NCBI GenBank assembly: GCA_965203435.1 | Contig: CBDBCU010000003.1 | Span: 74,918 to 138,917, forward strand | From: Dehalococcoidia bacterium | GTDB lineage: Bacteria; Chloroflexota; Dehalococcoidia; Lucifugimonadales; UBA3495 | Direction: 5' to 3' | DNA length: 64,000 nucleotides | Shown here: one piece after another, positions 7,860-38,718 of the stretch | How the letters are laid out: every line of letters begins with the position of its first letter | Numbering within the stretch: position 1 is the first letter of the stretch | Position numbers and translations under genes: made by a program | Notes under the pieces: generated by a model | What the model was told of the DNA's origin: nothing | Database searches by the model: none | Seen by the model: only the letters and a program-made list of their open reading frames with translations

Positions 7860-8105
7860 ATGGCTACCTATGGCATCCGGGAGTTTAAGGCCCGGGCCAG
7901 TGAAATTCTCCGCAATGTGGAGGAGTGCGAGGAAGTGGTAATTACCCGGCGGGGGAAACCGTGCGGGAAACTTACCGGCGTGCCGCCATCGGAGGAAAAT
8001 CCGGCTCTGATGGCGCTCCGGGAAAAGTATAGTTCCTTGCCCGATCTGGATTTCGAGGAACTTCAGACCACCATTAAAGGATTCTGGAAAGTCCGCCTTG
8101 TTTGA
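7860..8105 (+). CDS. Phd/YefM-type antitoxin-like protein, orphan copy with no toxin gene directly downstream
   Basis: N-terminal MATYGIREFKARASEILRNVEE.EEVVITRRGKPCGKL is typical of Phd/YefM-family antitoxins. The first ~40 codons are almost identical at DNA level to the gene at 8157. Confidence 0.65.
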   Translation: MATYGIREFKARASEILRNVEECEEVVITRRGKPCGKLTGVPPSEENPALMALREKYSSLPDLDFEELQTTIKGFWKVRLV

Positions 8106-8156
8106 CGCTACGATGTGTCAAGGGCAAACTATCCAACCGCTTTATCGGGGGTATTT

Positions 8157-8435
8157 ATGGCTACCTATGGCATCCGGGAGTTCAAGGCCCGGGCCAGTGA
8201 AATCCTCCGCAATGTGGAGGAGGGCGAGGAAGTGGTAATTACCCGGCGGGGGAAACCGTGCGGGAAACTTATCGCGCCGCCGGTCGATGCAGGGCCGCAG
8301 CTTTCCCTGGCTACGCTGCGGGGGGCCTTTCGGGACATCCTGCCCGAGGCTACTTGGGAGGATTTTCAGGAAATCAAGAAAATCTGGGAGCCGCGGCCGT
8401 TGCCGGAGGACGACAATGCAGTCCAGGCCGGCTGA
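8157..8435 (+). CDS. Phd/YefM-type antitoxin (partner of VapC)
   Basis: It has the same N-terminal domain as the 7860 gene. The ATG at 8157 matches the paralog start, whereas the ORF-track start at 8115 is an upstream GTG extension. The 3' end overlaps the PIN gene by 20 nt. Confidence 0.7.
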   Translation: MATYGIREFKARASEILRNVEEGEEVVITRRGKPCGKLIAPPVDAGPQLSLATLRGAFRDILPEATWEDFQEIKKIWEPRPLPEDDNAVQAG

Positions 8436-8820
8436 GTTTGTGGTGGACAGCCACGCCCTTTGGTGGTATCTCAAGACGCCGGAACTGCTTTCCGAAACGG
8501 CGGTTTCGGTCTTTGCGCTGGCGGAAGCCGGCAATGCCACTATCGTAATTCCGGCCATTGTCGTGGCTGAGTTTTACTTTCTTTCCGTCAAGCGCGGTCA
8601 GCCCTTTACTCCCGCCGCCCTGTACCATCACCTAGCTCAGGTACGCGGCATCGAGTTATCCGACTTGGGCATCGCGCAACTGGCTTTGCTGGAGCGGTTG
8701 CCGGAGATAGCGGACATCCACGACCGGCTGATTGCGGCGGAGGCGCTGCACCGCAAAGCCCCGCTGCTGACCCGGGATCGCACTCTCCGGGCGTCAACGC
8801 AGTTGGCAACCATTTGGTAG
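8416..8820 (+). CDS. vapC: PIN-domain toxin (VapC family)
   Basis: About 134 aa with conserved acidic positions in VVDSHALWWY, VVAEFYF, IHDRLIAAEA and LLTRDR. The ATG at 8416 overlaps the antitoxin stop. The ORF-track start at 8287 is an out-of-context extension. Confidence 0.75.
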   Translation: MQSRPAEFVVDSHALWWYLKTPELLSETAVSVFALAEAGNATIVIPAIVVAEFYFLSVKRGQPFTPAALYHHLAQVRGIELSDLGIAQLALLERLPEIADIHDRLIAAEALHRKAPLLTRDRTLRASTQLATIW

Positions 8821-8831
8821 TTGTCCCCCCA

Positions 8832-8860
8832 TTGACCTGCCCTTTATTGACCGCTATAGT
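8832..8860 (+). promoter_or_regulatory. Candidate sigma-70-type promoter for the nucleotidyltransferase/MoxR operon
   Basis: TTGACC (8832-8837), a 17-nt spacer, then TATAGT (8855-8860), 33 nt upstream of the ATG at 8893. Motif match only. Confidence 0.4.
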
Positions 8861-8892
8861 ATCCGGCAACTGCTGGCGCGGCGGGGGGCTTT

Positions 8893-9630
8893 ATGTTTGC
8901 TTTGATACTGGCCGGGGGCAAGGGGGAACGGCTGCGGCCCTTGACCGATACTCTGCCCAAGCCCATGGCGCCGCTGGCCGGCCAGCCCCTCCTGGAACAT
9001 CAGGTAGATTGGCTGCGGTCGGCCGGGGTTTCCGAGGTGGTCTTTCTGGCGGGCTATCGCTGGCAGCAGGTGCGGGACTATTTCGGCGATGGCGGCGATT
9101 TCGGCATCCGGGCGCATTACAGCGTCGAGGATTCGCCCCTGGGCCGGGGCGGGGCTATCCGCCAGGGCTTGGCCCAGGTTCCCGAAATGGAGGATGCCGT
9201 TTTTGTCCTGAACGGGGATATTATCACCGCCGCCGACCCGGCGGCGCTGTTAGCCGCCTACCGCCGCCGTCAAGCCGCCAATCCCGCGCACTTGGCTACT
9301 ATTATGGTGACGCCGATGGTCAGCCCCTATGGGATTGTGGAACTGGACGGGCCGGAGGGCGTGGCGGCCTTTCGGGAAAAGGCGGAATTGCCGCATTGGA
9401 TTAACGGCGGCGTTTATGTCTTTGACCGCCGCTTGGCCCCGCTGCTGCCGGAGGTGGGCGACCACGAAACGGAAACCTTTCCGCATTTGGCGCGGCAAGG
9501 GCGCATTGCCGCCTATCCCACCCGGGATTTCTGGCGCAGCGTGGATTCCTTTAAGGATTTGCGGGAAGCCGAGGATTATCTGCAAGGGCGCCGCCCGGCC
9601 GCCGTACCGGCGGCAGCGGCCCGGGGCTGA
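8893..9630 (+). CDS. Sugar-phosphate nucleotidyltransferase (NTP_transferase family)
   Basis: N-terminal LILAGGKGERLRPLTDTLPKPM signature (GxGxRL). Length is 245 aa. Confidence 0.8.
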   Translation: MFALILAGGKGERLRPLTDTLPKPMAPLAGQPLLEHQVDWLRSAGVSEVVFLAGYRWQQVRDYFGDGGDFGIRAHYSVEDSPLGRGGAIRQGLAQVPEMEDAVFVLNGDIITAADPAALLAAYRRRQAANPAHLATIMVTPMVSPYGIVELDGPEGVAAFREKAELPHWINGGVYVFDRRLAPLLPEVGDHETETFPHLARQGRIAAYPTRDFWRSVDSFKDLREAEDYLQGRRPAAVPAAAARG

Positions 9631-9634
9631 CCGG

Positions 9635-10600
9635 ATGACTGCCAATATCCTCAGTCCGGAAATTGTCGGCCGGGTGGCCGCGGCTATGGCCCGGATTAAA
9701 GGCAATGTGGGGCAGGCCCTGGTGGGCAAGGGGGAAGTGGTGGAGCTGACCCTGGCCGCCGTGCTGAGCGGCGGGCATATTCTGGTGGAGGATGTGCCGG
9801 GCATTGGCAAGACGACCCTGGCCCGGGCCCTGGCTAATTCCCTGGATTGCCAGTTCAAGCGGATTCAGTTCACGCCGGATTTGATGCCGGCGGACATTAC
9901 CGGCATCCACTACTATAACCAGAAAAGCGGCGAGTTCGAGTTTCGGCCCGGCCCCATCATCGCCCAAATAGTGCTGGCCGATGAAATCAACCGGGCTACG
10001 CCGCGCACCCAATCGGCTCTGCTGGAAGCTATGGCCGAGCGGCAGCTGACCGTGGATGAGGCTACCGTGTCCTTGCCGGCGCCCTTTCTGGTCATCGCCA
10101 CGCAAAACCCCATTGAACTGGAAGGCACCTTTCCTTTGCCCGAGGCTCAGTTGGATCGTTTCCTCATCCGCCTGCAATTGGGCTACCCGGCGGAGGCCGA
10201 GGAGGAGGAAATGCTGCTGCGGTTTGAGCAAGCGGAGCCTTTGACCGACCTGCGTCCGGTAGCGGCCGCCGGGGAAATTCTGGAGTTTCAGGCATTGACC
10301 CGGCGGGTTTATGTGGATCCGGTACTGCGGAATTATGCCGTCCGCATTGGGCAGGCCAGCCGGCAGCATCCGGAGGTGGAACTGGGGTCCAGTCCCCGGG
10401 CTACGATGGGCTTGTACCGGTGCAGCCAGGCTTTATCGCTGCTGCGCGGCCGGGAGTATGTTACCCCGGACGAAATCAAGACCCTGGCCCCCTATACCCT
10501 GGGTCACCGGGTTATCCTCAAGTCCCAGGCCCGGCTGCGGGAACGGACGGCGGCGGACATTATTGGGGAAATACTGGAACGGGTAACGGTGCCGGTGTAG
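9635..10600 (+). CDS. MoxR-family AAA+ ATPase
   Basis: Walker A GIGKT, Walker B LADEINR, ATQNPIE and the C-terminal SPRAT motif. The ATG at 9635 lies just after the upstream stop. The ORF-track start at 9329 overlaps the previous gene. Confidence 0.9.
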   Translation: MTANILSPEIVGRVAAAMARIKGNVGQALVGKGEVVELTLAAVLSGGHILVEDVPGIGKTTLARALANSLDCQFKRIQFTPDLMPADITGIHYYNQKSGEFEFRPGPIIAQIVLADEINRATPRTQSALLEAMAERQLTVDEATVSLPAPFLVIATQNPIELEGTFPLPEAQLDRFLIRLQLGYPAEAEEEEMLLRFEQAEPLTDLRPVAAAGEILEFQALTRRVYVDPVLRNYAVRIGQASRQHPEVELGSSPRATMGLYRCSQALSLLRGREYVTPDEIKTLAPYTLGHRVILKSQARLRERTAADIIGEILERVTVPV

Positions 10601-10627
10601 CAGTATCCCTTTGCGGGCAAGGCTTTG

Positions 10628-10755
10628 CCGTCCTTCAACAAGTTCAGGGTGAGCGGAAAGCAAGTTCAGGGTGAGCAGAAAGCAAGTTCAGGGTGAGCGG
10701 AAAGCAAGTTCAGGGCCGTCCTTCAACAAGTTCAGGATGATCGGAAAGTTCGGGG
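10628..10755. repeat. Family A intergenic repeat cluster between MoxR and DUF58 genes
   Basis: ccgtccttcaacaagttcagggtgagcgg, then three tandem ~22-nt units aaagcaagttcagggtgagc(g/a)g, then a second ccgtccttcaacaagttcaggatgatcgg. Confidence 0.9.
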
Positions 10756-10761
10756 CGGGTT

Positions 10762-12000
10762 ATGCTTAACGATTTCTGGCCTTTCATTGGCGGGGTGCTG
10801 CTGTTTGTCGGGCTGGTGTCCAGCCTGGGACTGCTGCTGATTGTGGGCGCGCTGGTGCTGATTGTCTGGGCTTTGGCGAAGTTCTGGGATCGCTTTGCCT
10901 TTCGGGAAGTGAATCACTGGCGCAGCCTGGGCCGCAGCCGGGCTTTCGTCGGCGATGCCCTGGAATATACCGTTACCCTGGCTAACGACAAGATTGTCCC
11001 CCTAATCTGGGTGGATATTCAGGACAGCTTTCCGCCGGAACTGGATTTGCCCGGGGCTACGGTGCGCGGCACCGGAATGGAAGCGGCCCGGGAGCATCGC
11101 ATTACCACCTCCTTGCTGCCCTACCAACGAGTAACCTGGAAGTATCAGTTGCGCTGCCTGGCCCGGGGCTATCACCGCATCGGCCCGGTACGGCTGCGGA
11201 GCGGCGATATTTTCGGCTTTACCGCCGCCGAAACCCGGCATAGCGGCGTGGAGCATATCCTGGTCTATCCCCGGGTGGTGGACTTGCGGCGGCTGATTTT
11301 CCCGTCGGAACATCCTTTAGGAGAAACCGGGGGGCGGCGGAATCTTTATCAAGACCCCAGCCGCTTTATGGGATTGCGGGATTATCAGCCCCGAGATCCG
11401 ATGAAGCATATCGACTGGAAAGCCACGGCGCGCCGTTCTTTGCTGCAAACCCGGGTTTTTGAGCCGGTGGTGTCGCTGAATGTGCTGATTGCCCTGAATG
11501 CCACGACCGGTGAGTTTGCCTGGCAGGGCAGCAATCGGCGGTTGTTTGAGCGGGCGGTTACGGTGGCGGCCTCGGTGGCCGATTACTGCGCCGCCGCCGG
11601 CTACAGTTTCGGGCTAATCAGCAACGGCGTGGCGGTCTATTCCGGCAAATGGCTCAGCGTGCCATTGGGCAGTTCCCGGCAGCAGTTGGGGCTGATTCTG
11701 GAAGCTCTGGCTATGGCCGGGCCTTATTCGGTGATTACCGTGGCCGATGTGCTGCAACGGGAGCGGGATACCCTGCCGCCGGGGGCTACGGTGGTGCTGG
11801 TTACGGCGGTAGTTACCCGGGCCCTGGCCGAGGAAATTGCCGTATTTCAGGATCGGGGCTACCGGGTAATCGTGCTGTATGCCGGGGACGGCGGGCCGGA
11901 AATCCGCTTGACCGGGGTAACGGTGCATTCCCTGGGGCGGGTGCTGGAAACTTTGGAACGGGAAACGGCGGCCGATTATGAGTCAGTTCTGGCGGACTAG
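10762..12000 (+). CDS. DUF58 domain protein (MoxR-associated, vWA-like)
   Basis: N-terminal transmembrane helices and the DUF58 signature FMGLRDYQPRDPMKHIDWKATAR. It occupies the conserved position after MoxR. Confidence 0.8.
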   Translation: MLNDFWPFIGGVLLFVGLVSSLGLLLIVGALVLIVWALAKFWDRFAFREVNHWRSLGRSRAFVGDALEYTVTLANDKIVPLIWVDIQDSFPPELDLPGATVRGTGMEAAREHRITTSLLPYQRVTWKYQLRCLARGYHRIGPVRLRSGDIFGFTAAETRHSGVEHILVYPRVVDLRRLIFPSEHPLGETGGRRNLYQDPSRFMGLRDYQPRDPMKHIDWKATARRSLLQTRVFEPVVSLNVLIALNATTGEFAWQGSNRRLFERAVTVAASVADYCAAAGYSFGLISNGVAVYSGKWLSVPLGSSRQQLGLILEALAMAGPYSVITVADVLQRERDTLPPGATVVLVTAVVTRALAEEIAVFQDRGYRVIVLYAGDGGPEIRLTGVTVHSLGRVLETLERETAADYESVLAD

Positions 12001-13381
12001 CGCCATCACCGGGGCCGCCCTCTTTCTGGAAGCGGCCGCCGCCTATCTGGTCATCGGGCTGCTGGCCCTGTTGACCAACACGGAATTGGCCCGGCTGCCG
12101 CTCTGGCTGGTACTGCTGGCTTTGGCTTGGGCCTACATCCTTTCCCTCTACATCCAAACCATCCGCTTTTCCCTGAACCTGCGCGGGGTCATCGGCCTGT
12201 TCCTGAGCCTGCTATCCCTGATGGCCCTGGCCGCTTTAAGCGGAATGGGCTTGGTACCCTTGGGCCGGATACTGAGCGGTGACCTGAACGTTGCCTTTGG
12301 GCTGGCCTTGACTCTGGCCTTTCTGGTGGCTTTGTGGTGGCGGGGCAGCAGTCTGGCCCATGACGAGGTGACACTGGAAACGGTGCGCGGCGCCTTTCAG
12401 CGGGGCTTGGGCATAGTAGTGGGGGCGGTAGTCATTGACGCCCTGGTCGCGGCCCCCATTGTCAACGGCTTGCTGGTGGTGGGCTTTTTCGCCGTGGGTT
12501 TGGCCGGCTTGTCCCTGGCCCGCTTTGCCGCCGAGGCCGCGGACGGGCAAGGGATGTCCCGGGACTGGTTTCTGCCCATCGGGATAATGGTGGCGGCGGT
12601 GCTGCTGCTGGCCCTGCTGATTGGCGGCCTGGGCCTGGGGGGATTGGATGATGTAACCCGCGCCATCCTGCGCGGGGTCGGCGCGGTAGGCAATTGGATC
12701 CTGCGCCCCATCCTGCTGGGCTTGGGCTATGTGGCGGCGGCCCTGGTCGCCCTGGGCCACTGGCTGACCAGCGTATTGGGCGGCGGCGATTTGAGCGGAT
12801 TGACCGAGGCGCAGGAACAGCTACGGCGTTTCCACGAGAACCTGGAGGAAGTGGAGGGCGATGGGCCGCCGGGCTGGGTCTATGCCCTGCTGCGGTGGCT
12901 GGCGGTGCTGACGGCATCCCTGTTGGTCGGGTGGGTTCTGTTTCGGGTTTTCCGATTCCGCCGCCTGCTGCGCCGTTCCGGGGAGGTGCAGGAAACGCGG
13001 GAATCCCTGTTCACTTGGGACAAGGCCAACCGGGATTTGTTCGGCGCGGTCAACGGCTGGTGGCATAACCTGGTGCAAAAGGCTACGGCGGAGGGGGATA
13101 AAGTCCCGGAACCGGTTAATCCCCGGGAAGTGTACCATCGCTTTCTGGAAGTGGCGGCAAACCGGGGCCGGCCCAAAGGGGAAAGTCAAACGCCGCGGGA
13201 ACATCAGGATACCCTGGAGGATACCCTGCCGCCGGCTCCGGTAGCGCGGATCGTCGGCGGCTTTCAGCGTTCCCACTACGGCCGCCAAGACGCTAATCCC
13301 CAAGAAATGGCAACCCTGCGGCAGGATTGGGAAACCCTGCGGCAGCACGAAAAAGAACGGGATGATTCCAACATGGATTAA
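11978..13381 (+). CDS. Polytopic membrane protein with C-terminal DUF4129-like domain (MoxR/DUF58 operon third gene)
   Basis: Multiple hydrophobic helices, then a soluble tail (PREVYHRFLEVAANRGRPKGESQTPREH) of the type seen in DUF4129/TgpA-like partners. The start overlaps the DUF58 stop. Confidence 0.6.
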   Translation: MSQFWRTSAITGAALFLEAAAAYLVIGLLALLTNTELARLPLWLVLLALAWAYILSLYIQTIRFSLNLRGVIGLFLSLLSLMALAALSGMGLVPLGRILSGDLNVAFGLALTLAFLVALWWRGSSLAHDEVTLETVRGAFQRGLGIVVGAVVIDALVAAPIVNGLLVVGFFAVGLAGLSLARFAAEAADGQGMSRDWFLPIGIMVAAVLLLALLIGGLGLGGLDDVTRAILRGVGAVGNWILRPILLGLGYVAAALVALGHWLTSVLGGGDLSGLTEAQEQLRRFHENLEEVEGDGPPGWVYALLRWLAVLTASLLVGWVLFRVFRFRRLLRRSGEVQETRESLFTWDKANRDLFGAVNGWWHNLVQKATAEGDKVPEPVNPREVYHRFLEVAANRGRPKGESQTPREHQDTLEDTLPPAPVARIVGGFQRSHYGRQDANPQEMATLRQDWETLRQHEKERDDSNMD

Positions 13382-22440: not shown

Positions 22441-22538
22441 ATTATAACAGAAAGGGGCGGGGATTCATAGACTTTCCGCGGCGGCTATCGAGAGTTTTAG
22501 CGGTTTCCCTTGTCGGAGGTTCCTGTTACGGGGTATTC

Positions 22539-22675
22539 ATCCTTCAACAAGTTCAGGATGAGCGGACGGCGGGGGCATCCTTACCGGATCAGGATGAGCG
22601 GACGGCGGGGGCATCCTTACCAGATCAGGATGGACAAATGACTCTTTTCCGCTCATCCTGAACTTGTTGAAGGAT
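22539..22675. mobile_element. MITE-like family A element with perfect 27-bp terminal inverted repeats
   Basis: ATCCTTCAACAAGTTCAGGATGAGCGG (22539-22565) and its exact reverse complement (22649-22675) flank two 36-nt direct repeats (caggatgagcggacggcgggggcatccttacc.gat). Confidence 0.7.
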
Positions 22676-22704
22676 GAACGGGAAAGAGTCACCCGCCGCC
22701 CTTA

Positions 22705-22713
22705 TGCTATAAT
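22705..22713 (+). promoter_or_regulatory. Extended -10 box (TGcTATAAT) 7 nt upstream of the ATG at 22721; candidate leaderless promoter
   Basis: The sequence tatgctataatccggcttATG is present, and the same block occurs upstream of the paralog at 25729. Confidence 0.45.
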
Positions 22714-22720
22714 CCGGCTT

Positions 22721-25417
22721 ATGTTCCCGCCGTTGCGCCAAATATATCCCCGCTTTTCCGACCGGAGCCGAGCGGCGCTGAACTTCCTTGCCATCCACAG
22801 CGGCCTGCTTATCTGCGCCCTGTTTCTGCTGGTCGGCCTGGCTTTGGCCGGGGATTACGGCATTAACCAGGATGAGCACCACCAGCGGAGTATTGCCGCC
22901 GTCAACTTGCAGTATATCCTGGGGCAGGATCCGATTGATGACCGGCACATTACCCCCGCCTACCGGTTGTACGGCATGGTTTTCGAGTTGCCGCTGCTGC
23001 TGGCCGAGCGGCTGCCGGGAATGGACGATTATCATTATGTCCACCGCCTCCGTTTAACCCTCACCCACCTGTTTTTCATCATAGCCGCCTTTTGCTGCTA
23101 CCGGCTGGCTTATCATTTGGGCGGCAATCGGCTGATTGCCCTGCTGGCCCTGCTGCTCTTTCTGCTACATCCCCGCCTTTATGCCCACTCTTACCTCAAC
23201 AGCAAAGACCTGCCCTTTCTCAGTATGTTTGTCATTGCCCTGTATCTGCTGGAGCGGGCTTTCCGCCGGGATACCATCGGGGCTTTTGCGTTGCTGGGCC
23301 TAGCCGTAGGGCTGCTGACCAATTTGCGGATTGCGGGGATAATGCTGCTGCCGGCGGCGCTGGCGCTGCGGGGGCTGGATCTGTTTTATGCCACGACTTG
23401 GCCGGAGCGCAAGGGAATCCTGCGGACTGCCGGGCTGTTCACCCTGGCCGCCGGGCTGACTTTTTATGTCGTATCGCCCTACGCCTGGGCTAACCCCATC
23501 AGCTACCTGGCAGACGGTATCGCCTTGGCGGCCAACCAGCCTATTGTTGTGCCGGTGCTATTCCAGGGCGAATGGACTACTGCCGACCAACTGCCGCCGC
23601 ATTACCTGCCGGTCTGGTTCAGCATCACTACACCGCCGCTGATTCTGTTGCTGGGCTTGGTCGGAATAGCGGCGGCCTTGGCCCGGGGTCTGGCCCGGCC
23701 CGGGGCGGTTTTCCGCAACAACCGGCGGCGTTTCCTATGGCTGCTGCTGGCCTGCTTTCTGCTGCCGCCGCTGGCCGCCGTGCTGCTGGGATCCGACCTG
23801 TTTGACGGCTGGCGGTATTTCTATTTTGTCTATGGGCCTTTCGGCCTGCTGGCGGCTCTGGGCGGCGGTTGGCTGCTGGCGGCCCTTTCCCGGCAGCGCC
23901 GGCGGCGGGCCGGGTTGTATGGCTTGGCCGGGTTGGGTCTGGGGTTGATTCTGCTCCAGATGACGCAACTCCATCCTTTGCAATACAGCTATTTCAACTT
24001 TCTGGTGGATCGCGTTACCCCGGAATATCTGCGGACGCAGTATCCTCTGGATCATTGGGAATTGGCCTTTCGAAACGGCTTGGAGGAGCTGCTGGAACGG
24101 CATCCCGGGGAGATCGTGGTGGCGCTGGTCGAGGAGAAACACAGGGAAACGCTGCCGCCGGCGGCCCGGCAGCGTTTGCCGCGCGGCGGCGGCCGTAACG
24201 CGGATTATGAACTGACCAACCCTTTTGACCCCAGCCGGCTAGATCTGGCTTTTAATTCGGTGTACCGCCGTTTCTACAATAACACCCTGGTCGCCGTACG
24301 GCCGCTGGATGCTTCCTTGATGACGCCGGCGGCCGTGGCGGCTTACCAAGAGCTTTACCGCCAAGCTGTCGCCGGCGAACCCATCAGCCGCGGGGATTAT
24401 AATGTTTATCTTGACGACAAAAGGCTTACTTTCGTACGGGAAAACTGCCCGGCGGATAGCCCGGATGCCTGGCTCGGCGTGAAAGTTTTTCCCCACGATC
24501 CGGAAACCTACCCGGGTTTCCGGGGAAACCGATCTTATGTAGCCTACGGCAATTACGGGGTACGCTTGGGGGATACCTGCCTCGCGGTTATCCAACTGCC
24601 CGATTACGCTCAAGGCGACCTGATCCTGATCCAGCGCAACGCAGGCTTTCCCGGCCAGAAGGAGGAACTTTACAGCATATCCCGGCCCGGCTGGCGGGAA
24701 CTTATTGAGCAAGGGCGGCGGAATCAGCCGCAACCGGCCGGGCCGGAGGCTTTTGATGTTTTCCTGGATCGGTCGGAGGACCGTCACCGTCTGATCTATG
24801 CCAAACCCCATTGCTCCCGAACTGAATATGAAACCCCGGTAACTTTGCATCTCTACCCGGAAGCCCTGGCCGATTTGCCCTTTTACCTCTGGAAAGGGGG
24901 GGTGGATAATCGGGATTTCCTCTTGTCGATTTACGGCGGCCGGCCCGGCGGGGAATGCGTGGCGGTGTTTCCCTTGCCCGATTATCCCATCGCCGCCATC
25001 CATACCGGGCAAGCCGGGGTGTGGGCCGTCAACCTATACCCGCCGACGGAACCCGACCGGTTGCGGGCAACTTATGCCGCCTTGGCCGACCGGCAACCCA
25101 ACGCCCGGGCCGCTTTTGACCTGTACCGGCAAGACAATCGGCTGATTTATTTGCGGGAAACCTGCGCGGCGGCGGATACGGCGGCCGGCTTTTTCCTGCA
25201 TATCCTCCCGGAGGATAGGGCCGATTTGCCGCCGGCACGGCAGGCGGCCGGCTTTGCCAATCGGGATTTTGCCTTTGACCGCCGGGGCGGCCCTTTTGAC
25301 GACAAATGCCTGGCCGCCGTTGCTTTGCCCAACTATCCCATCAAGGAAATAAGGACGGGGCAGTATGTACCCGGGCAAGGGGAATTGTGGGCGGTGGAAT
25401 TGATGGTGGGGCGGTAG
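22721..25417 (+). CDS. GT-C fold membrane glycosyltransferase (family 39/ArnT-PMT-like) with C-terminal triple repeat module
   Basis: About 12 predicted hydrophobic helices and a first-loop acidic motif (GDYGINQDEHH). The extracytoplasmic tail of about 450 aa contains three copies of a ~85-aa two-Cys module. The ATG at 22721 matches the paralog start; the ORF-track start at 22664 lies inside the repeat element. Confidence 0.7.
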   Translation: MFPPLRQIYPRFSDRSRAALNFLAIHSGLLICALFLLVGLALAGDYGINQDEHHQRSIAAVNLQYILGQDPIDDRHITPAYRLYGMVFELPLLLAERLPGMDDYHYVHRLRLTLTHLFFIIAAFCCYRLAYHLGGNRLIALLALLLFLLHPRLYAHSYLNSKDLPFLSMFVIALYLLERAFRRDTIGAFALLGLAVGLLTNLRIAGIMLLPAALALRGLDLFYATTWPERKGILRTAGLFTLAAGLTFYVVSPYAWANPISYLADGIALAANQPIVVPVLFQGEWTTADQLPPHYLPVWFSITTPPLILLLGLVGIAAALARGLARPGAVFRNNRRRFLWLLLACFLLPPLAAVLLGSDLFDGWRYFYFVYGPFGLLAALGGGWLLAALSRQRRRRAGLYGLAGLGLGLILLQMTQLHPLQYSYFNFLVDRVTPEYLRTQYPLDHWELAFRNGLEELLERHPGEIVVALVEEKHRETLPPAARQRLPRGGGRNADYELTNPFDPSRLDLAFNSVYRRFYNNTLVAVRPLDASLMTPAAVAAYQELYRQAVAGEPISRGDYNVYLDDKRLTFVRENCPADSPDAWLGVKVFPHDPETYPGFRGNRSYVAYGNYGVRLGDTCLAVIQLPDYAQGDLILIQRNAGFPGQKEELYSISRPGWRELIEQGRRNQPQPAGPEAFDVFLDRSEDRHRLIYAKPHCSRTEYETPVTLHLYPEALADLPFYLWKGGVDNRDFLLSIYGGRPGGECVAVFPLPDYPIAAIHTGQAGVWAVNLYPPTEPDRLRATYAALADRQPNARAAFDLYRQDNRLIYLRETCAAADTAAGFFLHILPEDRADLPPARQAAGFANRDFAFDRRGGPFDDKCLAAVALPNYPIKEIRTGQYVPGQGELWAVELMVGR

Positions 25418-25431
25418 GGCGAGTCCCCCCG

Positions 25432-25530
25432 CCGTCATTCCCGCGTAAGCGGGAATCCAGAAATGCCAGATTGGTCATAGGCCGGTCTTTGGTAGTACCG
25501 TCGGGATTCCCGCTTACGCGGGAATGACGG
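25432..25530. repeat. Family B composite element: inverted pair of 27-nt hairpin units
   Basis: CCGTCATTCCCGCGTAAGCGGGAATCC (25432-25458) and its exact reverse complement (25504-25530). Each unit folds as ATTCCCGC-GTAA-GCGGGAAT. Confidence 0.85.
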
Positions 25531-25548
25531 TAGCGGGGCCGCCGTTTC

Positions 25549-25576
25549 CATCCTTCAACAAGTTCAGGATGAGCGG
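25549..25576. repeat. Family A repeat, single copy
   Basis: catccttcaacaagttcaggatgagcgg. Confidence 0.85.
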
Positions 25577-25621
25577 ACAAGCAGCGCCGCACCACTTTTA
25601 CCGTCCTTCCCGGCCTCTCTA

Positions 25622-25721
25622 CCGTCATTCCCGCGTAAGCGGGAATCCAGAACGGCACTGCTTTATAATGCCGCACCCTTGGCAAGCAACCACCGGATTC
25701 CCGCTTACGCGGGAATGACGG
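25622..25721. repeat. Family B composite element, second copy
   Basis: The same 27-nt unit occurs at 25622-25648, with its exact reverse complement at 25695-25721. The element abuts the promoter block of the second GT-C gene. Confidence 0.85.
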
Positions 25722-25728
25722 TAGAGTA

Positions 25729-25737
25729 TGCTATAAT
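25729..25737 (+). promoter_or_regulatory. Extended -10 box (TGcTATAAT) 7 nt upstream of the ATG at 25745; candidate leaderless promoter
   Basis: The sequence tatgctataatccggtctATG is present. Spacing and sequence are the same as at 22705. Confidence 0.45.
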
Positions 25738-25744
25738 CCGGTCT

Positions 25745-28108
25745 ATGTTCCCGCCCTTGCGCCATATATTCTTGCGCTTTTCCGGCGGGGGACAAGCGGC
25801 GCTGAACTTCCTTACCGTCCGCAGCGGCCTGCTTACCTGCGTCCTTTTTCTGCTGGTCGGTCTGGGCCTGGCCGGAGATTATGGCATTGGCCCGGATGAG
25901 GGGATACAGCGGCGGATTGCCCAAGGCAATCTGAACTATATCTTGGGCCGGGCCGAGGTCAGCGACCCGCAGCTTATACCCACCGACCGCTATTATGGCG
26001 TGGCCTTTGAGCTGCCGTTGCTGCTGGCCGAGGGGGTGCTGGGCATAGAGGATTACCATTATGTCCACCGGCTCCGCTTAATCCTGACCCACCTGTTCTT
26101 TATAGTAGGGGCTTTCTGCTGCTACCGGCTGGCTTGGCGGCTGTTCGACAACCGGCTGATTGCCCTTTTTGCCCTGCTGCTGTTTCTGCTGCATCCCCGG
26201 ATTTATGCCCATTCCTTTGTCAATTCCAAAGACTTGCCCTTTCTCAGTATGTTCAGCATTGCCTTGTATCTGCTGGAACGGGCTTTCCGCCGGGATACCG
26301 TCGGGGCGTTCATCCTGCTGGGAATAGCGGTGGGATTGCTGACCAATTTGCGGATTGCGGGGATGGCGCTACTGCCGGCGGCTCTGGCAATGCGGGGTTT
26401 GGACTGGCGGATAGCGGACGGAGGGGCGGGACGGAAACATACTCTGCTGACCGCCGGATGGTTCACCCTGGCCGCCGGGCTGACCCTTTACGCGGTAACG
26501 CCTTATGCCTGGACTAACCCGGTCGACTATCTGACCGCTGCCCTGTCGCTCACCGTCAATCATCCCAATGTGGTATTTGAGTTGTTTCAGGGCCGGCTGA
26601 TTCCGTCGACGGAACTGCCGCCGCACTATGGCTTGACCTGGTTCGGCATCACCACGCCGCCGCTGGTTCTACTGCTGGGCCTAGTCGGAATGGCGGCGGT
26701 AGTGGCCCAAAGCCTGGCCCGGCCCGGGGCGGTTTTCCGCAATAGCCGGCGGCGTTTTCAACTGCTGCTGCTGGCCGGTTTTGCCCTGCCTTTGCTGGCC
26801 GCCGCCCTGCTGGGTTCCAATCTGTACGGCAACTGGCGGCAGCTGTTCTTTATCTATGTACCCTTTTGCCTGCTGGCGGCCGGGGGCTTGCATTGGCTGG
26901 CGGCGGTCTTGGCCCGGCGGCCGGGAAAGCGGATGGGCATATACGGCTTGGGGGGGCTGGGTTTGGGATTGATTCTGCTGCAAATGGCGCAGCTGCATCC
27001 CCAGCAGCAGATTTATTTCAACTTTCTGGTGGATCGGACTACCCCCAACTATCTGCAATCCCAATACGAAATGGATAGTTGGCGGCTGTTGGCCCGGGAG
27101 GGATTGGAGGATTTGCTGGCCCGCCATCCGGGAGAAACTTTGACCGTGGAGACGGCGCGGGCGGCGGTAAAAATCCTGCCGGCCGCCGACCGGCAGCATT
27201 TGATTGTCGGCTCCGCCACCCGGGAAGCCGACTATGCCCTTGCCGGGCCGGGGGAATCCCAGCGTACCGACTTGGCTTTTAATGCCGAGGATCAGCGCCG
27301 CGTTTATAACAACGCGGTTTTGTCGGTCAAGCCGCTGCAAGGGGAACGGATGACGGCGGCGGCCAGGGCGGCCTATGCTGAGTTCTATCAGCAAGCCGCG
27401 GCTGGGGAGCCCATTATCCGGGAGGATTATGCTGTATACCGCAACGGCCGGATTTTGACTTTTGTTAAAGAGGATTGCCGGCCGGGCGACCGGGCCGCCC
27501 GCTTTGGCGTGAAAGTTTATCCGGCGCCGGCGGAACTGCGGGCCGGCTATATTCCCAACCAGGTTGCCTATGATTTTCGGGAAAACGACGGGGTGCGGCT
27601 GGGCGAGCGCTGCCTGGCGCTGATTGAGCTGCCCGACTATCCCATCGATTTTATTCTGGCCGGGCAGTATGCCGACTGGGAAAGCCGGGCGGTATGGTGG
27701 CCGCGTCCTTTGTGGTCGGGGCTGCACAGCCTGGCCCGGCCGGGCATAGAGGAAACCATCGCCGCCGGAGGGGAAAGCAATCTCCGGCAAGAGGAGGGCG
27801 GCGTTCCCTTTGCGTTGTATCCGCAGGCGGGACGGATTAGCTATTACCGAAACCCTTGCAATCCGGCGGACACGGCGGCCGGGTTCTTTCTGCACATCAT
27901 CCCGGAGGAGGTTGCCGACTTGCCCCGGGCACGACGGCGGTACGGCTTTGGGAACCGGGATTTTGCCTTTGACCGCTGGGGCGAACATTTCGACGGCAAG
28001 TGCCTGGCGGTAGTCCCCTTGCCCCACTATCCCATCAAGGAAATCCGTACCGGCCAGCATATCCCCGGCCAAGGTCCGTTGTGGGCGGCGAATTTGCCGG
28101 GGCCGTAG
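25745..28108 (+). CDS. GT-C fold membrane glycosyltransferase paralog with C-terminal double repeat module
   Basis: Collinear with the 22721 gene (GDYGIGPDEG, LRIAGMALLPAALAMRGLD and other shared segments). Its tail carries two copies of the two-Cys module. Confidence 0.7.
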   Translation: MFPPLRHIFLRFSGGGQAALNFLTVRSGLLTCVLFLLVGLGLAGDYGIGPDEGIQRRIAQGNLNYILGRAEVSDPQLIPTDRYYGVAFELPLLLAEGVLGIEDYHYVHRLRLILTHLFFIVGAFCCYRLAWRLFDNRLIALFALLLFLLHPRIYAHSFVNSKDLPFLSMFSIALYLLERAFRRDTVGAFILLGIAVGLLTNLRIAGMALLPAALAMRGLDWRIADGGAGRKHTLLTAGWFTLAAGLTLYAVTPYAWTNPVDYLTAALSLTVNHPNVVFELFQGRLIPSTELPPHYGLTWFGITTPPLVLLLGLVGMAAVVAQSLARPGAVFRNSRRRFQLLLLAGFALPLLAAALLGSNLYGNWRQLFFIYVPFCLLAAGGLHWLAAVLARRPGKRMGIYGLGGLGLGLILLQMAQLHPQQQIYFNFLVDRTTPNYLQSQYEMDSWRLLAREGLEDLLARHPGETLTVETARAAVKILPAADRQHLIVGSATREADYALAGPGESQRTDLAFNAEDQRRVYNNAVLSVKPLQGERMTAAARAAYAEFYQQAAAGEPIIREDYAVYRNGRILTFVKEDCRPGDRAARFGVKVYPAPAELRAGYIPNQVAYDFRENDGVRLGERCLALIELPDYPIDFILAGQYADWESRAVWWPRPLWSGLHSLARPGIEETIAAGGESNLRQEEGGVPFALYPQAGRISYYRNPCNPADTAAGFFLHIIPEEVADLPRARRRYGFGNRDFAFDRWGEHFDGKCLAVVPLPHYPIKEIRTGQHIPGQGPLWAANLPGP

Positions 28109-28129
28109 TTTCGGGCCGGGACGGGTGGT

Positions 28130-29749
28130 TTATTCCGGGCGGATTACGCCGCTGTGCGATCCGTCGGCATAGCCGGTGCGGATTTCCCGGATAGCGTAAT
28201 CCGGCAAGGGAACAAAGGCCAGGCAGCGGCCGCGATGCCGCAGGCCGGATCCGCCGAAACGGAAATCCCGGTTCTCGAAACCGTGTTCCTTCCGATAGTC
28301 GGGGAGGTCCTCCGGGTTCACCGGCGCGATGTGCAGATAGAACTGCCTTTCCAGTCCTGGCGGGGGGCAAGGGTCTTGCACATAGAGCAGCTCCTGGCCG
28401 CGCCAATACACCGCATAGTCGGCTATAAGGTCGGGGGGCTGTTGGGCGATAATCCGGTCGGCGGCGGCAGCCAGCCCGGCTTGATAGCGGGCCAACTGCT
28501 CCTCCCGGGTCAGGGTGGGGTCGATGACCATAATCACGCCAGAAAAGGCAACCAGGTAAAGCAGGCCCTCCCGTTCCAGGATGGCGGTAACATAGCCCGG
28601 CGCATCGCGGACAATGCGGGTGGGCGTAAAAGTTTCGTAATCGAAGCGATCCACTACGAACCCGTCGCCGCCGTTCCCGGCGGCATCCGGCAGGGATAGG
28701 TAAGCCACATAAACGCCTTGTTCGTTGGCATAGGCAAAGGTGGATACCGCCCCGGGCAACACGGCGACCGGCTCGGTTACGCCGGCTTCCGGCGGCGCTT
28801 GGTTAGTTCCCCAGAAAGGATAACCGTAAAAGCCGCCCGGAACTATGGCGTTCAGCTCCTCTAACTGCCCCCGGGTAGCCCGGCCCGACTCGGCGTCATT
28901 GTCCGCGCCATAGAGGATGCCGTCCGGGCCGATGGATATGCCGTAGGTATTGCGGAAACCGGTGGCATAGACTTCCACATCCCGATCCCCGGGGCGAAAG
29001 CGGGCAATGACCCCCATTAAGTCGGGACGGCCGCCGGCGGCGGCTAATTCGGCGGCGGCATCCGTAATATAGTTTCCCTGGGGGTGGGGCTGCTCGATCC
29101 AGGGATGGCCGATACTGGCATAAATCCACTCGCCATCATTGGTCAAGCCGTTGGGACTATGCGTCCGTTCAAGGGCTAATATCCCGTCCACCACGATGCG
29201 CTGGTCATCCAGGGCACCGTCGGCGCCAATGCGGTAGGATAAAATCCGGGCGTTGGATTGGGCTAACCGGGCCAAATTCTCCGTCTCGGTCCCCTTGGCC
29301 GAGCGGACACACCCGACGGTGGGCAGCAAGGCGCAGACATTGCCCAGATCCGATAAGTAAAGGCGTCCGTCCAGGATGGTCAAACCCTGGGGAACGCTCA
29401 GCCCCTCGAGGATCGTTTTAATTTCCTCGGTGGCCACATTCAGCAAACGGATATTCCCCTTTGCATCGGCTAGATACATCCGGTCAGAATCCAACCAGGT
29501 CGCCGCCGTCAACGGGCCGCCGGGGCGCAGCAGGGTCGGGAGGGGGCTGTCTATAGGTTGGAGCGGGCCAACCGGAGTGGGCTTTGCCGGAACGGCCGGC
29601 GGCGGGAGCGGCGGGGTAGCCGTTGGCTCAGCGGCGCAAGCCAAGGCAAAGGCGGCCAGCAGCGCCACTAACATCCCCAGTCCCATTGCCGTCCAACGGC
29701 CGGGCCGGCGGGAAAGGGTCGATGCAGTGATTTCAGACAAGGGCAACAA
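28130..29749 (-). CDS. Lipoprotein with PQQ-dependent sugar dehydrogenase/SGL-like beta-propeller and a C-terminal two-Cys module
   Basis: Signal/lipobox-like LLAAFALAC; GFRNTYGISIGPDGILYGADND ... LNAIVPGGFYGYP resembles the soluble glucose/sorbosone dehydrogenase propeller. The last ~96 aa match the module in the two GT-C proteins. The start may be the internal ATG at 29686. Confidence 0.6.
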   Translation of the reverse strand: MLPLSEITASTLSRRPGRWTAMGLGMLVALLAAFALACAAEPTATPPLPPPAVPAKPTPVGPLQPIDSPLPTLLRPGGPLTAATWLDSDRMYLADAKGNIRLLNVATEEIKTILEGLSVPQGLTILDGRLYLSDLGNVCALLPTVGCVRSAKGTETENLARLAQSNARILSYRIGADGALDDQRIVVDGILALERTHSPNGLTNDGEWIYASIGHPWIEQPHPQGNYITDAAAELAAAGGRPDLMGVIARFRPGDRDVEVYATGFRNTYGISIGPDGILYGADNDAESGRATRGQLEELNAIVPGGFYGYPFWGTNQAPPEAGVTEPVAVLPGAVSTFAYANEQGVYVAYLSLPDAAGNGGDGFVVDRFDYETFTPTRIVRDAPGYVTAILEREGLLYLVAFSGVIMVIDPTLTREEQLARYQAGLAAAADRIIAQQPPDLIADYAVYWRGQELLYVQDPCPPPGLERQFYLHIAPVNPEDLPDYRKEHGFENRDFRFGGSGLRHRGRCLAFVPLPDYAIREIRTGYADGSHSGVIRPE

Positions 29750-29897: not shown

Positions 29898-30974
29898 TTG
29901 AGCATCAACAACTGGCGGCTGTGGGTTGGCATTGGGGTCAGCGCCCTTTTCATCGGATTCCTGCTTTTATCCATTGACGGGGAGAAGCTGTGGGCGGTAA
30001 TGCGGGAAGCCGATTACCGCTACGCCATTCCCGCCGCCGTCATCTACTTTATCGCGGTCTTTTTCCGGTCGGCCCGCTGGCAGTATGTCCTGTCGCCGCT
30101 GCGGGCCCTTCCCATAAGGCGGCTCTATCCGGTAGTGGTTATCGGCCATGCCGGCAACAATGTGCTGCCGGCGCACATGGGGGAACTAATCCGGGCTTAC
30201 TATCTGGCGCAGCGGGAACGGTTCAGCGGCAGCGCGGCCCTGGCGACCATCGGCGTGGAGCGGGTCTATGACGGGCTGACTTTGCTGGCTTTAGGCGCTA
30301 CGGCGGTAATGCTGCTGCTGGCGGCCGGCCAATTTACCGGCATTGGCGAAGTTTCCCGCAGCGCCATCGTGATAACGGCCGGCGGGGTGGCCGCCGTATT
30401 TTCCCTGGGCCTGCTGGTGATTACCGCGCTGGCCGTCGTCCCCGGCGCGGCCCGGCTGATTTACCGGTTGGTTGACCGGCTGCCGGCCCGGTTCCGGCCG
30501 CAGGCCCGGGAAGTGGTAGGCAGTTTCCTGGAAGGGTTGAGGATCCTGGCCACGCCGCGGCAACATTTGTTGCTGGCCCTGCGGACGCTGCCGGTCTGGC
30601 TGGGCGAGGCCGCCGTCTATCTGACCATTGCCTACTCTTTCGGCATCCAGAACCACTTTGACAGCGGCCTTGCCTTTGTCTTTGCCATCCTGCTGGTAAC
30701 GGCGACTTCCAACCTGGCGTCGGCCTTTCCCTTTGCCATTGGCGCTATTGGCCCCTTTGAGTTCATCTCCCAGCTGACCCTGATTGTGCTGGGCGTACCG
30801 GCGGAAGTGGCCCTCAGCTATGCCCTGGTGACCCATCTGGTGGCTTTGTGGCTGCCGGTGAACCTGGCGGGCCTGGCGTTGATGCTCAAGCACAACCTTT
30901 CCCTGAAACAGCTGACGGCGGAAACGGAATGGGGCCAAGCGGCGGAACCGGCGGAGCCGGCCCGGGGGATGTAG
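29898..30974 (+). CDS. UPF0104 / lysylphosphatidylglycerol-synthase-TM-region family (flippase-like) membrane protein
   Basis: 358 aa polytopic protein whose N-terminal region (ADYRYAIPAAVIYFIAVFFRSARWQYVL) is typical of the family. TTG start with AAGGAAGG upstream. Confidence 0.6.
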   Translation: MSINNWRLWVGIGVSALFIGFLLLSIDGEKLWAVMREADYRYAIPAAVIYFIAVFFRSARWQYVLSPLRALPIRRLYPVVVIGHAGNNVLPAHMGELIRAYYLAQRERFSGSAALATIGVERVYDGLTLLALGATAVMLLLAAGQFTGIGEVSRSAIVITAGGVAAVFSLGLLVITALAVVPGAARLIYRLVDRLPARFRPQAREVVGSFLEGLRILATPRQHLLLALRTLPVWLGEAAVYLTIAYSFGIQNHFDSGLAFVFAILLVTATSNLASAFPFAIGAIGPFEFISQLTLIVLGVPAEVALSYALVTHLVALWLPVNLAGLALMLKHNLSLKQLTAETEWGQAAEPAEPARGM

Positions 30975-30977
30975 CCC

Positions 30978-32306
30978 ATGCGGGTGGGCATTATCGGCGG
31001 CGGGGCGGCGGGATTGGCCGCCGCCTATGAACTGACCAAAGGCGGCCACTATGCCGAGGTCTTTGAGGCCGCCCCCTTTCTGGGGGGGCAGGCATCCACT
31101 TTCGAGGTGGGCGGCGGGCAGTTGGAACGGGGCTATCATCATCTCTTTGTCAGCGACACCGCCATGGTCGACCTGATTCATGAGTTGGGCCTGGGCCACA
31201 AGCTGGAGTGGCGGGAGTCCAAAGTCGGCTTGTACCACAGCGGCCGCATCTGGGACTTTGCCACGCCGCTGGATTTGCTGCGTTTTAAGCCGCTAACCCT
31301 GCCGCAGCGGATCCGCCTCGGGATATGGACTTTCATCCTGCAAAAGACCCGCCACTGGCAGAAGTTCGAGGGCGTCACCGCTCAGGATTGGCTGACCCGG
31401 CGGCTGGGGGCGGAAACCTATCGGACGATTTGGGAGCCGATGCTGCGCGGCAAGTTCGGGGAATATTACGATCAAATCGGAATGGCCTGGCTTTGGGGGA
31501 AAATCCATCTGCGGGTGGCCTCCCGGGAAAAGGGAATGCAGCGGGAACGGCTGGGCTATCCGATGGGCAGTTTCGGCGAGGTTTTTGACCGGCTGGGGGC
31601 GCGGGTGGTTGAGTTGGGCGGCGATGTGCATACTTCGGCCCGGGTTAACCGCATAACGATCGATGAACGGGGGGCCGCCGCCGGCTTGGAAGTGCAACTG
31701 GACGGGCAGGAACCGGCTATGCGGGATTATGACGCCATCATCGCCACTACGCCCTCTTACATTTTCACCCGCTTGGCCCCCTTTCTGCCGGCGGATTATC
31801 GGGAAGGGCTGGAACAGGCGCGCTACCTGGCGGCGGTGCTGCTGATCTTGACCCTGGATCGGCCTTTGTCGGAAAAGTATTGGCTGAATGTGGCCGACCG
31901 CGCCTTGCCCTTTGTCGGCGTCATCGAGCATACCAATATGATTGACAAGTCTCTCTACGGCGGCCGGCACATCCTCTATCTGACCAACTACACCCCCCGG
32001 GACAGCGAGCTGTACCGCAAAAGCCCGGAGGAATTGCTCGCGGATTTCGTTCCCCATCTGCAAAAGCTGAACCCGGATTTTCAACGCTCTTGGATCCGGG
32101 AATACTATCATCACAAGGTGGACGGGGCGCAGCCTATCATCGGCGTCAACTATGGACAGCAATTGCCTGACCATCGGACGCCGTGCCGGAATTTGTACCT
32201 GGCGAACACCACTCAAATTTACCCGGAGGATCGCGGCACCAACTACTCGGTAAGGATGGGCCGCCAGGTGGCCCGAATGGTATTGGAGGATAACGGGGCG
32301 GCCTAG
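30978..32306 (+). CDS. FAD/NAD(P)-binding oxidoreductase (amine oxidase / phytoene desaturase-like)
   Basis: N-terminal dinucleotide-binding motif VGIIGGGAAGLAAAYEL ... FEAAPFLGGQA. Length is 442 aa. The start lies 4 nt after the upstream stop. Confidence 0.75.
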   Translation: MRVGIIGGGAAGLAAAYELTKGGHYAEVFEAAPFLGGQASTFEVGGGQLERGYHHLFVSDTAMVDLIHELGLGHKLEWRESKVGLYHSGRIWDFATPLDLLRFKPLTLPQRIRLGIWTFILQKTRHWQKFEGVTAQDWLTRRLGAETYRTIWEPMLRGKFGEYYDQIGMAWLWGKIHLRVASREKGMQRERLGYPMGSFGEVFDRLGARVVELGGDVHTSARVNRITIDERGAAAGLEVQLDGQEPAMRDYDAIIATTPSYIFTRLAPFLPADYREGLEQARYLAAVLLILTLDRPLSEKYWLNVADRALPFVGVIEHTNMIDKSLYGGRHILYLTNYTPRDSELYRKSPEELLADFVPHLQKLNPDFQRSWIREYYHHKVDGAQPIIGVNYGQQLPDHRTPCRNLYLANTTQIYPEDRGTNYSVRMGRQVARMVLEDNGAA

Positions 32307-38690: not shown

Positions 38691-38718
38691 GGGATTCCCG
38701 CTTTCGCGGGAAGGACGG
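38691..38718. repeat. Family B hairpin unit, solo degenerate copy
   Basis: gggattcccgctttcgcgggaaggacgg differs from the 25504 unit at 2 positions. It lies between the E1 alpha and beta genes. Confidence 0.7.

Follow-up and report, generated by a model that had tools for sequence, protein, structure and literature searches.

A two-cysteine module without match in Pfam, NCBIfam or the PDB, repeated at the C-termini of two GT-C glycosyltransferases and a propeller protein of a Dehalococcoidia bacterium

Introduction

What is it that two membrane glycosyltransferases and a beta-propeller protein, encoded side by side, carry in common at their C-termini? The question is raised by a stretch of 64,000 nucleotides from a Dehalococcoidia bacterium (assembly GCA_965203435.1, contig CBDBCU010000003.1, positions 74,918 to 138,917), the whole of which is called the window here. 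In this window two tandem genes for glycosyltransferases of the GT-C type, paralogue 1 (22721..25417, plus strand) and paralogue 2 (25745..28108, plus strand), converge on the gene for a GSDH-like propeller protein (28130..29749, minus strand). An earlier note, made from the nucleotide sequence, had described in the C-terminal parts of the three proteins six copies of a module of about 85 amino acids with two cysteines. Here it is reported that this module is an autonomous domain, which is absent from the curated libraries that were searched (Pfam, NCBIfam and PDB).

Results

The six copies are homologous and fill the protein tails

Translation in frame at the six places given in the earlier note yields the motifs that it described, and both cysteines are invariant in the alignment of the copies. 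Pairwise BLASTP among the six gave 30-115 bits at 28-69% identity. The note had considered that the similarity might vanish under profile statistics; the outcome was the opposite. A profile built from any five copies retrieved the sixth from the 870 six-frame fragments of the window at 64-127 bits (E 4e-19 to 1e-38), while the best unrelated fragment in these leave-one-out searches scored 5.6 bits or less. Chance similarity of the six copies is thereby excluded.

A six-frame scan of the 64-kb window found exactly six copies, so that the number stood, but the length did not: the module comprises about 120 amino acids. The coordinates given before enclose only the beta core and leave outside an N-terminal helix and the last strand. 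A conserved helix ('..Y..l.aGEP.ar..FDvY') precedes each copy and a strand ('G.G.LW.aE') follows it. When the module envelopes were set on the window with a profile of 29 family sequences, the modules were seen to tile the tails completely, without unexplained linkers. In paralogue 1 these envelopes delimit three modules on the plus strand: the membrane-proximal module 1a (24329..24691; 96.5 bits, and 77 bits in the leave-one-out search), which is of a divergent first-position subtype, module 1b (24680..25045; 104 bits, leave-one-out 64 bits), which is of the middle subtype, and the distal module 1c (25046..25411; 175 bits), which is of the last-position subtype and the most conserved. Paralogue 2 has two modules on the same strand, module 2a (27359..27721; 97.6 bits) of the first-position subtype and module 2b (27743..28105; 149 bits) of the last-position subtype, the latter being 69% identical to module 1c. 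The propeller protein ends in module P (28136..28489, minus strand; 126 bits, leave-one-out 91 bits), which again belongs to the last-position subtype.

Predicted fold and library searches

The structure of module 1c was predicted with AlphaFold2 from the 29-sequence alignment, at a mean predicted local distance difference test (pLDDT) score of 96.5 and a predicted template modelling (pTM) score of 0.89. In the prediction an N-terminal helix is accompanied by three short helices and about eight strands. Foldseek comparison with the PDB gave no chain at E<=0.001. The best template modelling (TM) score, 0.48, was obtained with 6moh_C, the cytokine-receptor chain of a DARPin-EpoR complex, and the remaining matches listed were mostly antibody chains, which are generic beta-sandwiches (Fab, FN3). 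The likeness to Fab, FN3 and cytokine-receptor domains is weak (E>=0.07, TM 0.29-0.48). No solved carbohydrate-binding module (CBM) or lectin in the PDB was matched by fold at E<=0.001, and nothing significant was found in the viral BFVD library. The confident model is thus without a significant PDB match, and the fold is apparently new, a claim that is limited to the comparison with the PDB.

At the sequence level the module profile gave noise only against PDB sequences (E>=0.43). The three window proteins and the 29 module sequences were scanned with Pfam-A (2025 copy) and NCBIfam 20.0 at E<=10, and no match fell on the module apart from noise-level labels such as Subtilosin_A and DUF6701. 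The Pfam label Subtilosin_A that is found on some homologues was discarded as a short spurious match within the module. None of the curated CBM and lectin models was matched, where these cover the families represented in Pfam (CAZy-only CBM families are outside this scope), and none of the C-terminal sorting-domain models of the type IX secretion system in NCBIfam and Pfam was matched either. A MIR domain was considered as well; it gave no Pfam match, and the predicted module has no threefold repetition and is C-terminal in position. In the literature on sponge symbionts no description was found of the module or of the expansion of GT-C enzymes reported below. The statement of the earlier note that the module is not a named domain has therefore held against Pfam-A, NCBIfam, PDB sequences and the folds in PDB and BFVD.

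A large family of C-terminal modules

When 1.84 billion representatives were searched exhaustively with HMMER, 2,423 protein clusters (at 50% identity) were found at E<=1e-3, and 904 were still found at E<=1e-30. Across the family a protein carries between 1 and 10 tandem copies. This variation was followed in the homologues of paralogue 2, which number more than 2,200 and to none of which any source gives a name. Their median length is 787 aa with two modules, 906 aa with three, 1019 aa with four, 1142 aa with five and 1265 aa with six.

The module is found almost always at the very end of the protein, fewer than 100 amino acids following the last copy in 346 of 352 proteins. These architecture counts come from the exhaustive search together with the genome loci; a first list of homologues consisted of proteins of at most 219 aa, mostly gene fragments. 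The genome loci are the best 72 out of 478 confirmed stretches, which were obtained by scanning one genome per species with 6 close module sequences as query. They contain 202 module-bearing open reading frames (ORFs), in which the median tail beyond the last module is 1 aa. Only in the remaining 6 of the 352 proteins is the module not C-terminal, and there a further 170-370 aa of unannotated sequence lie behind it. Such cases are L039 from Ca. Entotheonella and L017 and L060 from Gammaproteobacteria, all of them carriers outside the Chloroflexota.

Enzymes that carry the module

Paralogue 1 is made up of a PMT_2-like multi-pass domain, a small alpha/beta region and the three modules. Its ORF (22664-25417) opens with a TTG codon at 22664; the likely start is the ATG at 22721, which gives a protein of 898 aa. 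For paralogue 2 the ORF (25679-28108) begins with TTG at 25679, and the likely start, ATG 25745, gives 787 aa. Both ATG codons are favoured because of the lengths of the orthologues. Paralogue 2 is 56% identical to paralogue 1 and 91% identical to homologue P0196, which likewise has 787 aa. Paralogue 1 is 85% identical to gene 1 of a four-gene array in L073, the locus of a close relative.

Pfam PMT_2 (PF13231) was matched by paralogue 1 at 33.6 bits and by paralogue 2 at 34.0 bits (cut-off 26.1), the match covering only residues 135-274 or thereabouts in both enzymes. A precomputed PF13231 assignment is present on all 120 listed homologues of paralogue 2. The last 250-360 residues of the two enzymes, like the last 120 of the propeller protein, have no Pfam or NCBIfam match. 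A full-length GT-C profile found no match among PDB sequences. The full-length model of paralogue 2 is moderately confident only (mean pLDDT 65.9), and its significant Foldseek matches are all GT-C enzymes, namely ArnT (5F15, 5EZM), PglB, AglB, STT3, ALG9, DPY19, EmbA/B, AftA and Pmt4 (probability 1.0, E down to 5e-5, TM-scores 0.3-0.47). Residues G44-D45-Y46-G47 and D51 of paralogue 2, right after the first transmembrane helix, are invariant in 35 homologues. Acidic residues of the first outer loop have a catalytic function in the GT-C class. A position of the C-terminal soluble part outside the membrane fits the cysteine pair of the module and the existence of relatives that bear a signal peptide.

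The end of the propeller gene lies 21 bp from that of paralogue 2. Its called product has 518 aa (start 29686) and the N-terminus MGLGMLVALLAAFALAC. In the earlier note the propeller was taken to be sugar-dehydrogenase-like. In the window protein itself the GSDH model (PF07995) stays below threshold (21.1 bits, cut-off 25), whereas in many homologues it is above it: PF07995 is precomputed on many of those at 50-70% identity, and a related module-bearing propeller protein scores 148.6 bits. A phmmer search of the PDB with the propeller gave noise. Among the 120 best homologues of the propeller part, 79 end in one or two modules, which makes the propeller-module fusion a stable architecture. At the N-terminus (29560-29686, minus strand) a signal- or lipoprotein-like segment (..LLAAFALAC) is followed by a tether rich in Pro and Thr, with Ala, AAEPTATPPLPPPAVPAKPTPVGPLQP. 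This tether is similar to the O-mannosylated linkers of actinobacterial lipoproteins. That the adjacent PMT-like enzymes might glycosylate it is speculative.

The module is not confined to these two kinds of enzyme. When the N-terminal parts of 312 module proteins were clustered, the largest group was PMT_2/PMT-like, and two further large groups were related to it (profile-profile probability 83-93%); no assignment was obtained for the other multi-pass groups. At least six hydrophobic segments precede the modules in 156 of the 202 ORFs. By Pfam the multi-pass partners are PMT_2/PMT, GtrII and Wzy_C, with DUF2079 and ALG3 as weak matches below cut-off. Further partners are a polysaccharide deacetylase, esterases of the GDSL/SGNH/AlgX type, arylsulfotransferases and the GSDH propellers, one of which also has a cytochrome c domain. 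The common denominator of the partners is catalysis on glycans outside the cytoplasmic membrane. In addition, proteins exist that contain nothing but a signal peptide or membrane anchor and 4-7 modules. As the module also stands alone in this way, it appears to be a binding or scaffolding unit and not part of an active site.

The cysteine pair and a polar site that is best kept in the distal copy

From 519 proteins 1,374 instances of the domain were extracted and subjected to mean-field coupling analysis (effective number of sequences, Neff, 764; residues are given in profile numbering). Both cysteines are present in 1,326 of the 1,333 ungapped instances, and no other column contains Cys in more than 2%. 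The pair Cys40-Cys88 ranks 10th among the long-range couplings, and the flanking strand pairs 34-91 and 38-87 are coupled too. Conservation and coupling together indicate that the two cysteines most likely form one disulfide.

The copies differ according to their position in the tail. Among the homologues of the GT-C enzymes of the window, last modules of different proteins are identical at a median of 67%, middle modules compared with middle ones at about 53% and first modules with first ones at 53%, and a first module compared with any other at about 30%. That the terminal copies are the most alike, as was noted for the three proteins of the window, is therefore true of the family as a whole. 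A core is equally conserved at all positions (the two cysteines, Pro55, Leu94-Pro95, Tyr97 and Gly105-Gln106), whereas the conservation of polar residues drops from the last to the middle to the first copy. In this order it amounts to 93, 78 and 38% for His52, 82, 60 and 38% for Arg65, 88, 67 and 50% for Asn72, 85, 71 and 47% for Asp74, and 75, 63 and 36% for Arg103. Mutual couplings were found for His52-Asn72, His52-Asp74, His52-Phe70, Asp74-Arg103 and Phe70-Arg103. The graded conservation of these residues and their mutual coupling point to a putative functional site that is best kept in the distal copy with its free end.

Carriers and habitat

DNA nearly identical to the window occurs in sequencing runs labelled 'sponge metagenome' and 'marine metagenome'. 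The best 72 loci come from metagenome-assembled genomes (MAGs), in the majority from those of Dehalococcoidia; Tepidiformaceae and Caldilineaceae are also represented, and the other carriers are Gammaproteobacteria (including Pseudomonadales), Ca. Entotheonella, Binatia, Latescibacteria and Gemmatimonadota. One gammaproteobacterial and one latescibacterial locus share a single biological sample. This set of taxa agrees with the known consortium of sponges with high microbial abundance. Within single genomes the module can be very frequent. On the Dehalococcoidia chromosome OZ251531.1 (3.37 Mb) the module genes number at least 20 and the modules themselves at least 43, and arrays of up to seven tandem paralogues occur. 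The module has multiplied greatly in bacteria of at least six lineages, at least some of them from marine sponges, and in MAGs of these lineages its genes form tandem arrays of variable copy number. Clades of Chloroflexi in sponges are documented, and GT83 was reported to be among the most abundant glycosyltransferase families of sponge Chloroflexi (PMC6306507).

Locus context and intergenic repeats

The earlier note had placed the three module genes in one pathway with a flippase-like UPF0104 protein and an FAD oxidoreductase. These two genes (29898-32306), of which the first matches LPG_synthase_TM (PF03706, 166 bits) and the second PRK07233 of NCBIfam (487 bits), lie close together as a pair, only 3 bp apart. 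Their adjacency to the module genes is kept in L073. In the 72 other module loci LPG_synthase_TM is found in none and the FAD enzyme in one. The proposed single pathway is therefore not supported; the adjacency is no feature of the family at large, and the pair occurs independently of the module. Of the neighbour families without the module, none was seen in more than 6 of the 72 loci, and the idea of a conserved operon partner for the module genes was set aside.

Comparison with L073 shows that the array itself changes in size. In this locus (1126-12364), whose flanks are 91-95% identical to those of the window, four GT-C paralogues lie between the genes for a glutamine amidotransferase and the propeller protein, where the window (22721-28108) has two. 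The two genes of the window are the orthologues of genes 1 and 4 of L073, and the two extra genes of L073 are 85% identical to each other. Between paralogue 1 and gene 1 of L073 the nucleotide identity is 88.5%, a greater divergence than in the flanks. Joints from 22566 to 25548 in metagenome contigs were considered as a deletion of paralogue 1 and rejected; one side of these joints rests on 18-27 bases only, and these bases fall in a 35-bp repeat that is present at both places.

The intergenic regions are rich in repeats. In the spacer between the GT-C genes (25418-25744) an element of about 95 bp is present twice (25434-25528 and 25624-25719); it is bounded by perfect 25-bp inverted repeats GTCATTCCCGCGTAAGCGGGAATCC, which are found also at 38692-38716. 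The spurious ORF translations 'IPAYAGMT / RLRGNDG' derive from these inverted repeats. In L073 each spacer between paralogues has one such element (4010-4104, 6924-7017 and 9880-9975). They might act as terminators or hairpins, or the copy-number changes of the array might use them as substrates. Upstream of paralogue 1, at 22536-22678, lies an element that resembles a miniature inverted-repeat transposable element (MITE), with perfect 31-bp terminal inverted repeats TTCATCCTTCAACAAGTTCAGGATGAGCGGA that enclose two 36-bp direct repeats. One arm of it recurs before paralogue 2 (25549-25581). Its inner 81-83 bp are missing from some metagenome contigs, which suggests that the element is polymorphic in presence and absence. 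The labels mir-2767 and Ms1 that Rfam gave in this region were rejected, being far below the gathering scores and lying on the inverted-repeat elements.

In four public runs, including a sponge metagenome, the contig word depth over 22531-22807 and 25301-25854 was 100 to 1,000 times that of the flanks (in one run, X1, about 107,000 over the intergenic elements against about 50 in the flanks), which implies that these repeats are extremely abundant in the communities concerned. The segment with the distal module, 25024-25300, was over-represented about 20-40 times, consistent with a large family of paralogues. Before both GT-C genes the sequence TATGCTATAATCCGG(C/T)(T/C)T-ATG is conserved (22703-22723 and 25727-25747). 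It places a -10-like TATAAT box just 7 nt ahead of the likely ATG, and this arrangement suggests that the GT-C transcripts are leaderless or nearly so. Among the public runs that contain the region, none could be identified as RNA.

Discussion

A proposed role for the module

What is established is that the copies are homologous and modular, how they are distributed, to which partners they are fused, and that their fold is predicted with confidence. The outside location of the module, its disulfide and the binding of a ligand are all things that we infer. As to its function, binding of a carbohydrate or an envelope polymer is the most plausible reading, by association with the fusion to varied extracytoplasmic glycan-acting domains and with the proteins that consist of an anchor and modules alone. 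The proposal of the earlier note, carbohydrate or cell wall binding, is hereby kept in its first half; binding to peptidoglycan is questionable for the main carriers, because sponge SAR202 Chloroflexi were reported to be without genes for peptidoglycan synthesis (PMC6306507), although the organism of the window may not belong to SAR202. In its more specific form, which we put forward tentatively and at a little short of an even prospect, the module would be a disulfide-stabilised, non-catalytic binding or targeting module with a CBM-like role, and its distal copy would recognise a glycan or acceptor that the carrier enzymes have in common. The polar and aromatic site of the distal copy (His52, Arg65, Asn72, Asp74 and Arg103 with Phe, Tyr and Trp) would then recognise the shared envelope glycan or acceptor. 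The middle copies would be spacers that arose by duplication and determine how far the tail extends from the membrane, and the divergent first copy would pack against the enzyme or be adapted to it.

Several points weigh against such a role. No known CBM or lectin resembles the module in sequence or fold in the libraries compared. The network of His, Asn, Asp and Arg residues could have a structural role only, or bind a metal. Phyla with different types of envelope are represented among the carriers, so that one bacterial ligand shared by all of them is not obvious, and the list of the top 150 proteins of the exhaustive search is biased towards multi-copy proteins.

Alternative explanations

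A ligand common to such different phyla would more easily be derived from the host, and the module might then be a host-interaction domain that binds the sponge matrix (sulfated glycans, collagen-like material) for attachment or recognition of the symbiont. The occurrence of the window DNA in sponge metagenome runs agrees with this, as does the range of carriers in the best 72 loci (Dehalococcoidia, Caldilineaceae, Ca. Entotheonella, Latescibacteria, Gemmatimonadota, Binatia and Gammaproteobacteria), with a gammaproteobacterial and a latescibacterial locus in one sample, and so do the anchored proteins made of modules only and the fusions to arylsulfotransferases. It is nevertheless unlikely, since most copies reside on polytopic GT-C enzymes of the cytoplasmic membrane (156 of 202 ORFs with at least six transmembrane segments), since in diderm carriers their tails would be periplasmic and beyond contact with a host matrix, and since the habitat labels concern a few runs only. 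Rather unlikely, too, is a module for protein-protein assembly or anchoring, dockerin-like or homotypic, by which enzymes would be gathered on a scaffold, on an S-layer or on each other. Docking modules do not usually come in tandem arrays of up to 10 copies, and the 72 loci have no recurrent scaffold or cohesin-like neighbour, no family being present in more than 6 of them. What speaks for assembly is that the same C-terminal module is attached to many different enzymes of one genome (at least 20 genes on one chromosome), that its extreme C-terminal position is like that of dockerins and anchoring domains, and that the distal copy is the most conserved.

The last observation bears on a third possibility as well, namely that the modules are a passive structural stalk of Ig-like spacers or stabilisers without specific ligand. 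The stepwise copy number from 2 to 6 in otherwise orthologous enzymes, the weak Foldseek resemblance to beta-sandwiches (Fab/FN3-like) and the loss of much of the polar motif in first-position copies would all be expected of a stalk. However, there is nothing beyond the last module of the GT-C enzymes to be held, and yet it is this distal copy that is most conserved, including its polar residues. Nor is a stalk needed where a soluble enzyme is fused to a single copy (79 of 120 propeller homologues), and we consider this reading distinctly improbable. Hardly credible is a C-terminal sorting or secretion signal of the type IX kind. In its favour are the position of the module at the very end of the protein (median tail 1 aa), the small size of its beta-rich fold (about 100 aa) and its presence on diverse exported enzymes, but the module occurs in tandem up to 10 times and is found mostly on polytopic membrane enzymes instead of secreted cargo, the carrier phyla have no dedicated secretion system in common, and no sorting-domain model of NCBIfam or Pfam was matched.

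A wider view combines a ligand-binding function with the habitat. The module would be a lectin-like domain of new fold that belongs to the sponge holobiont and was acquired and amplified across phyla together with the GT-C arrays, for a surface glycan code that is shared among the symbionts or matched to the host, a 'symbiosis toolkit'. If this were true, it would mean camouflage from, or recognition by, the phagocytic cells of the sponge. We regard it as rather doubtful.

Significance and comparison with known systems

None of the curated domain and structure libraries that were searched has an entry for this family, which comprises at least 2,400 protein clusters. A substantial part of the envelope biology of uncultivated bacteria, at least some of them associated with sponges, is marked by it, and present annotation labels this part 'PMT_2' or leaves it blank. 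With a model of the module, the tails of thousands of proteins could be annotated, and comparisons between the genomes of host-associated Chloroflexota would become sharper. If the module does bind, it represents a new CBM-like family and offers a handle on what the expanded GT-C arrays glycosylate. If its ligand is derived from the host or shared among symbionts, it bears on how sponge symbionts are recognised and tolerated.

Accessory binding-type modules on carbohydrate-active enzymes of the envelope are already known as a kind; the family and the apparent fold are new. The carbohydrate- or envelope-polymer-binding role proposed here is best compared with that of the CBMs on carbohydrate-active enzymes, for example the CBM-like C-terminal domains of EmbA/B/C. 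Like these, the module is inferred to be non-catalytic, beta-rich, autonomous and often tandem. As in EmbA/B/C, it follows a GT-C membrane domain and would lie on the outer face; EmbA/B chains also came up in the Foldseek comparison with the full-length model of paralogue 2, where the match is made via the membrane domain. With CBMs in general it shares the promiscuous fusion to several classes of glycan-acting enzymes. In the libraries compared it is without similarity to known CBMs or lectins in sequence or fold, and it has a leading helix of its own and a conserved cysteine pair. It differs from them also in its distribution, which is concentrated in uncultivated MAGs of several phyla, at least some of them associated with sponges.

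The MIR domain of PMT1/2/4, which is thought to aid the recognition of an acceptor or ligand, is likewise an accessory domain on the luminal or extracytoplasmic side of PMT-type GT-C enzymes. It is, however, a beta-trefoil within a loop between transmembrane helices, whereas the module is a helix with a beta core and is C-terminal and tandem. The enzymes themselves resemble ArnT (GT83) and the bacterial PMT_2 proteins (GT39-like), in that they pass the PMT_2 threshold, come close to ArnT in the fold comparison and have invariant acidic residues after the first transmembrane helix; ArnT differs in having a small, unrelated periplasmic C-terminal domain that contains no repeats. The C-terminal domains of type IX cargo and the dockerins are also placed at the extreme C-terminus of many extracytoplasmic enzymes per genome. 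From both of these the module is set apart in that it occurs in tandem, on polytopic membrane enzymes and across unrelated phyla, and matches neither family.

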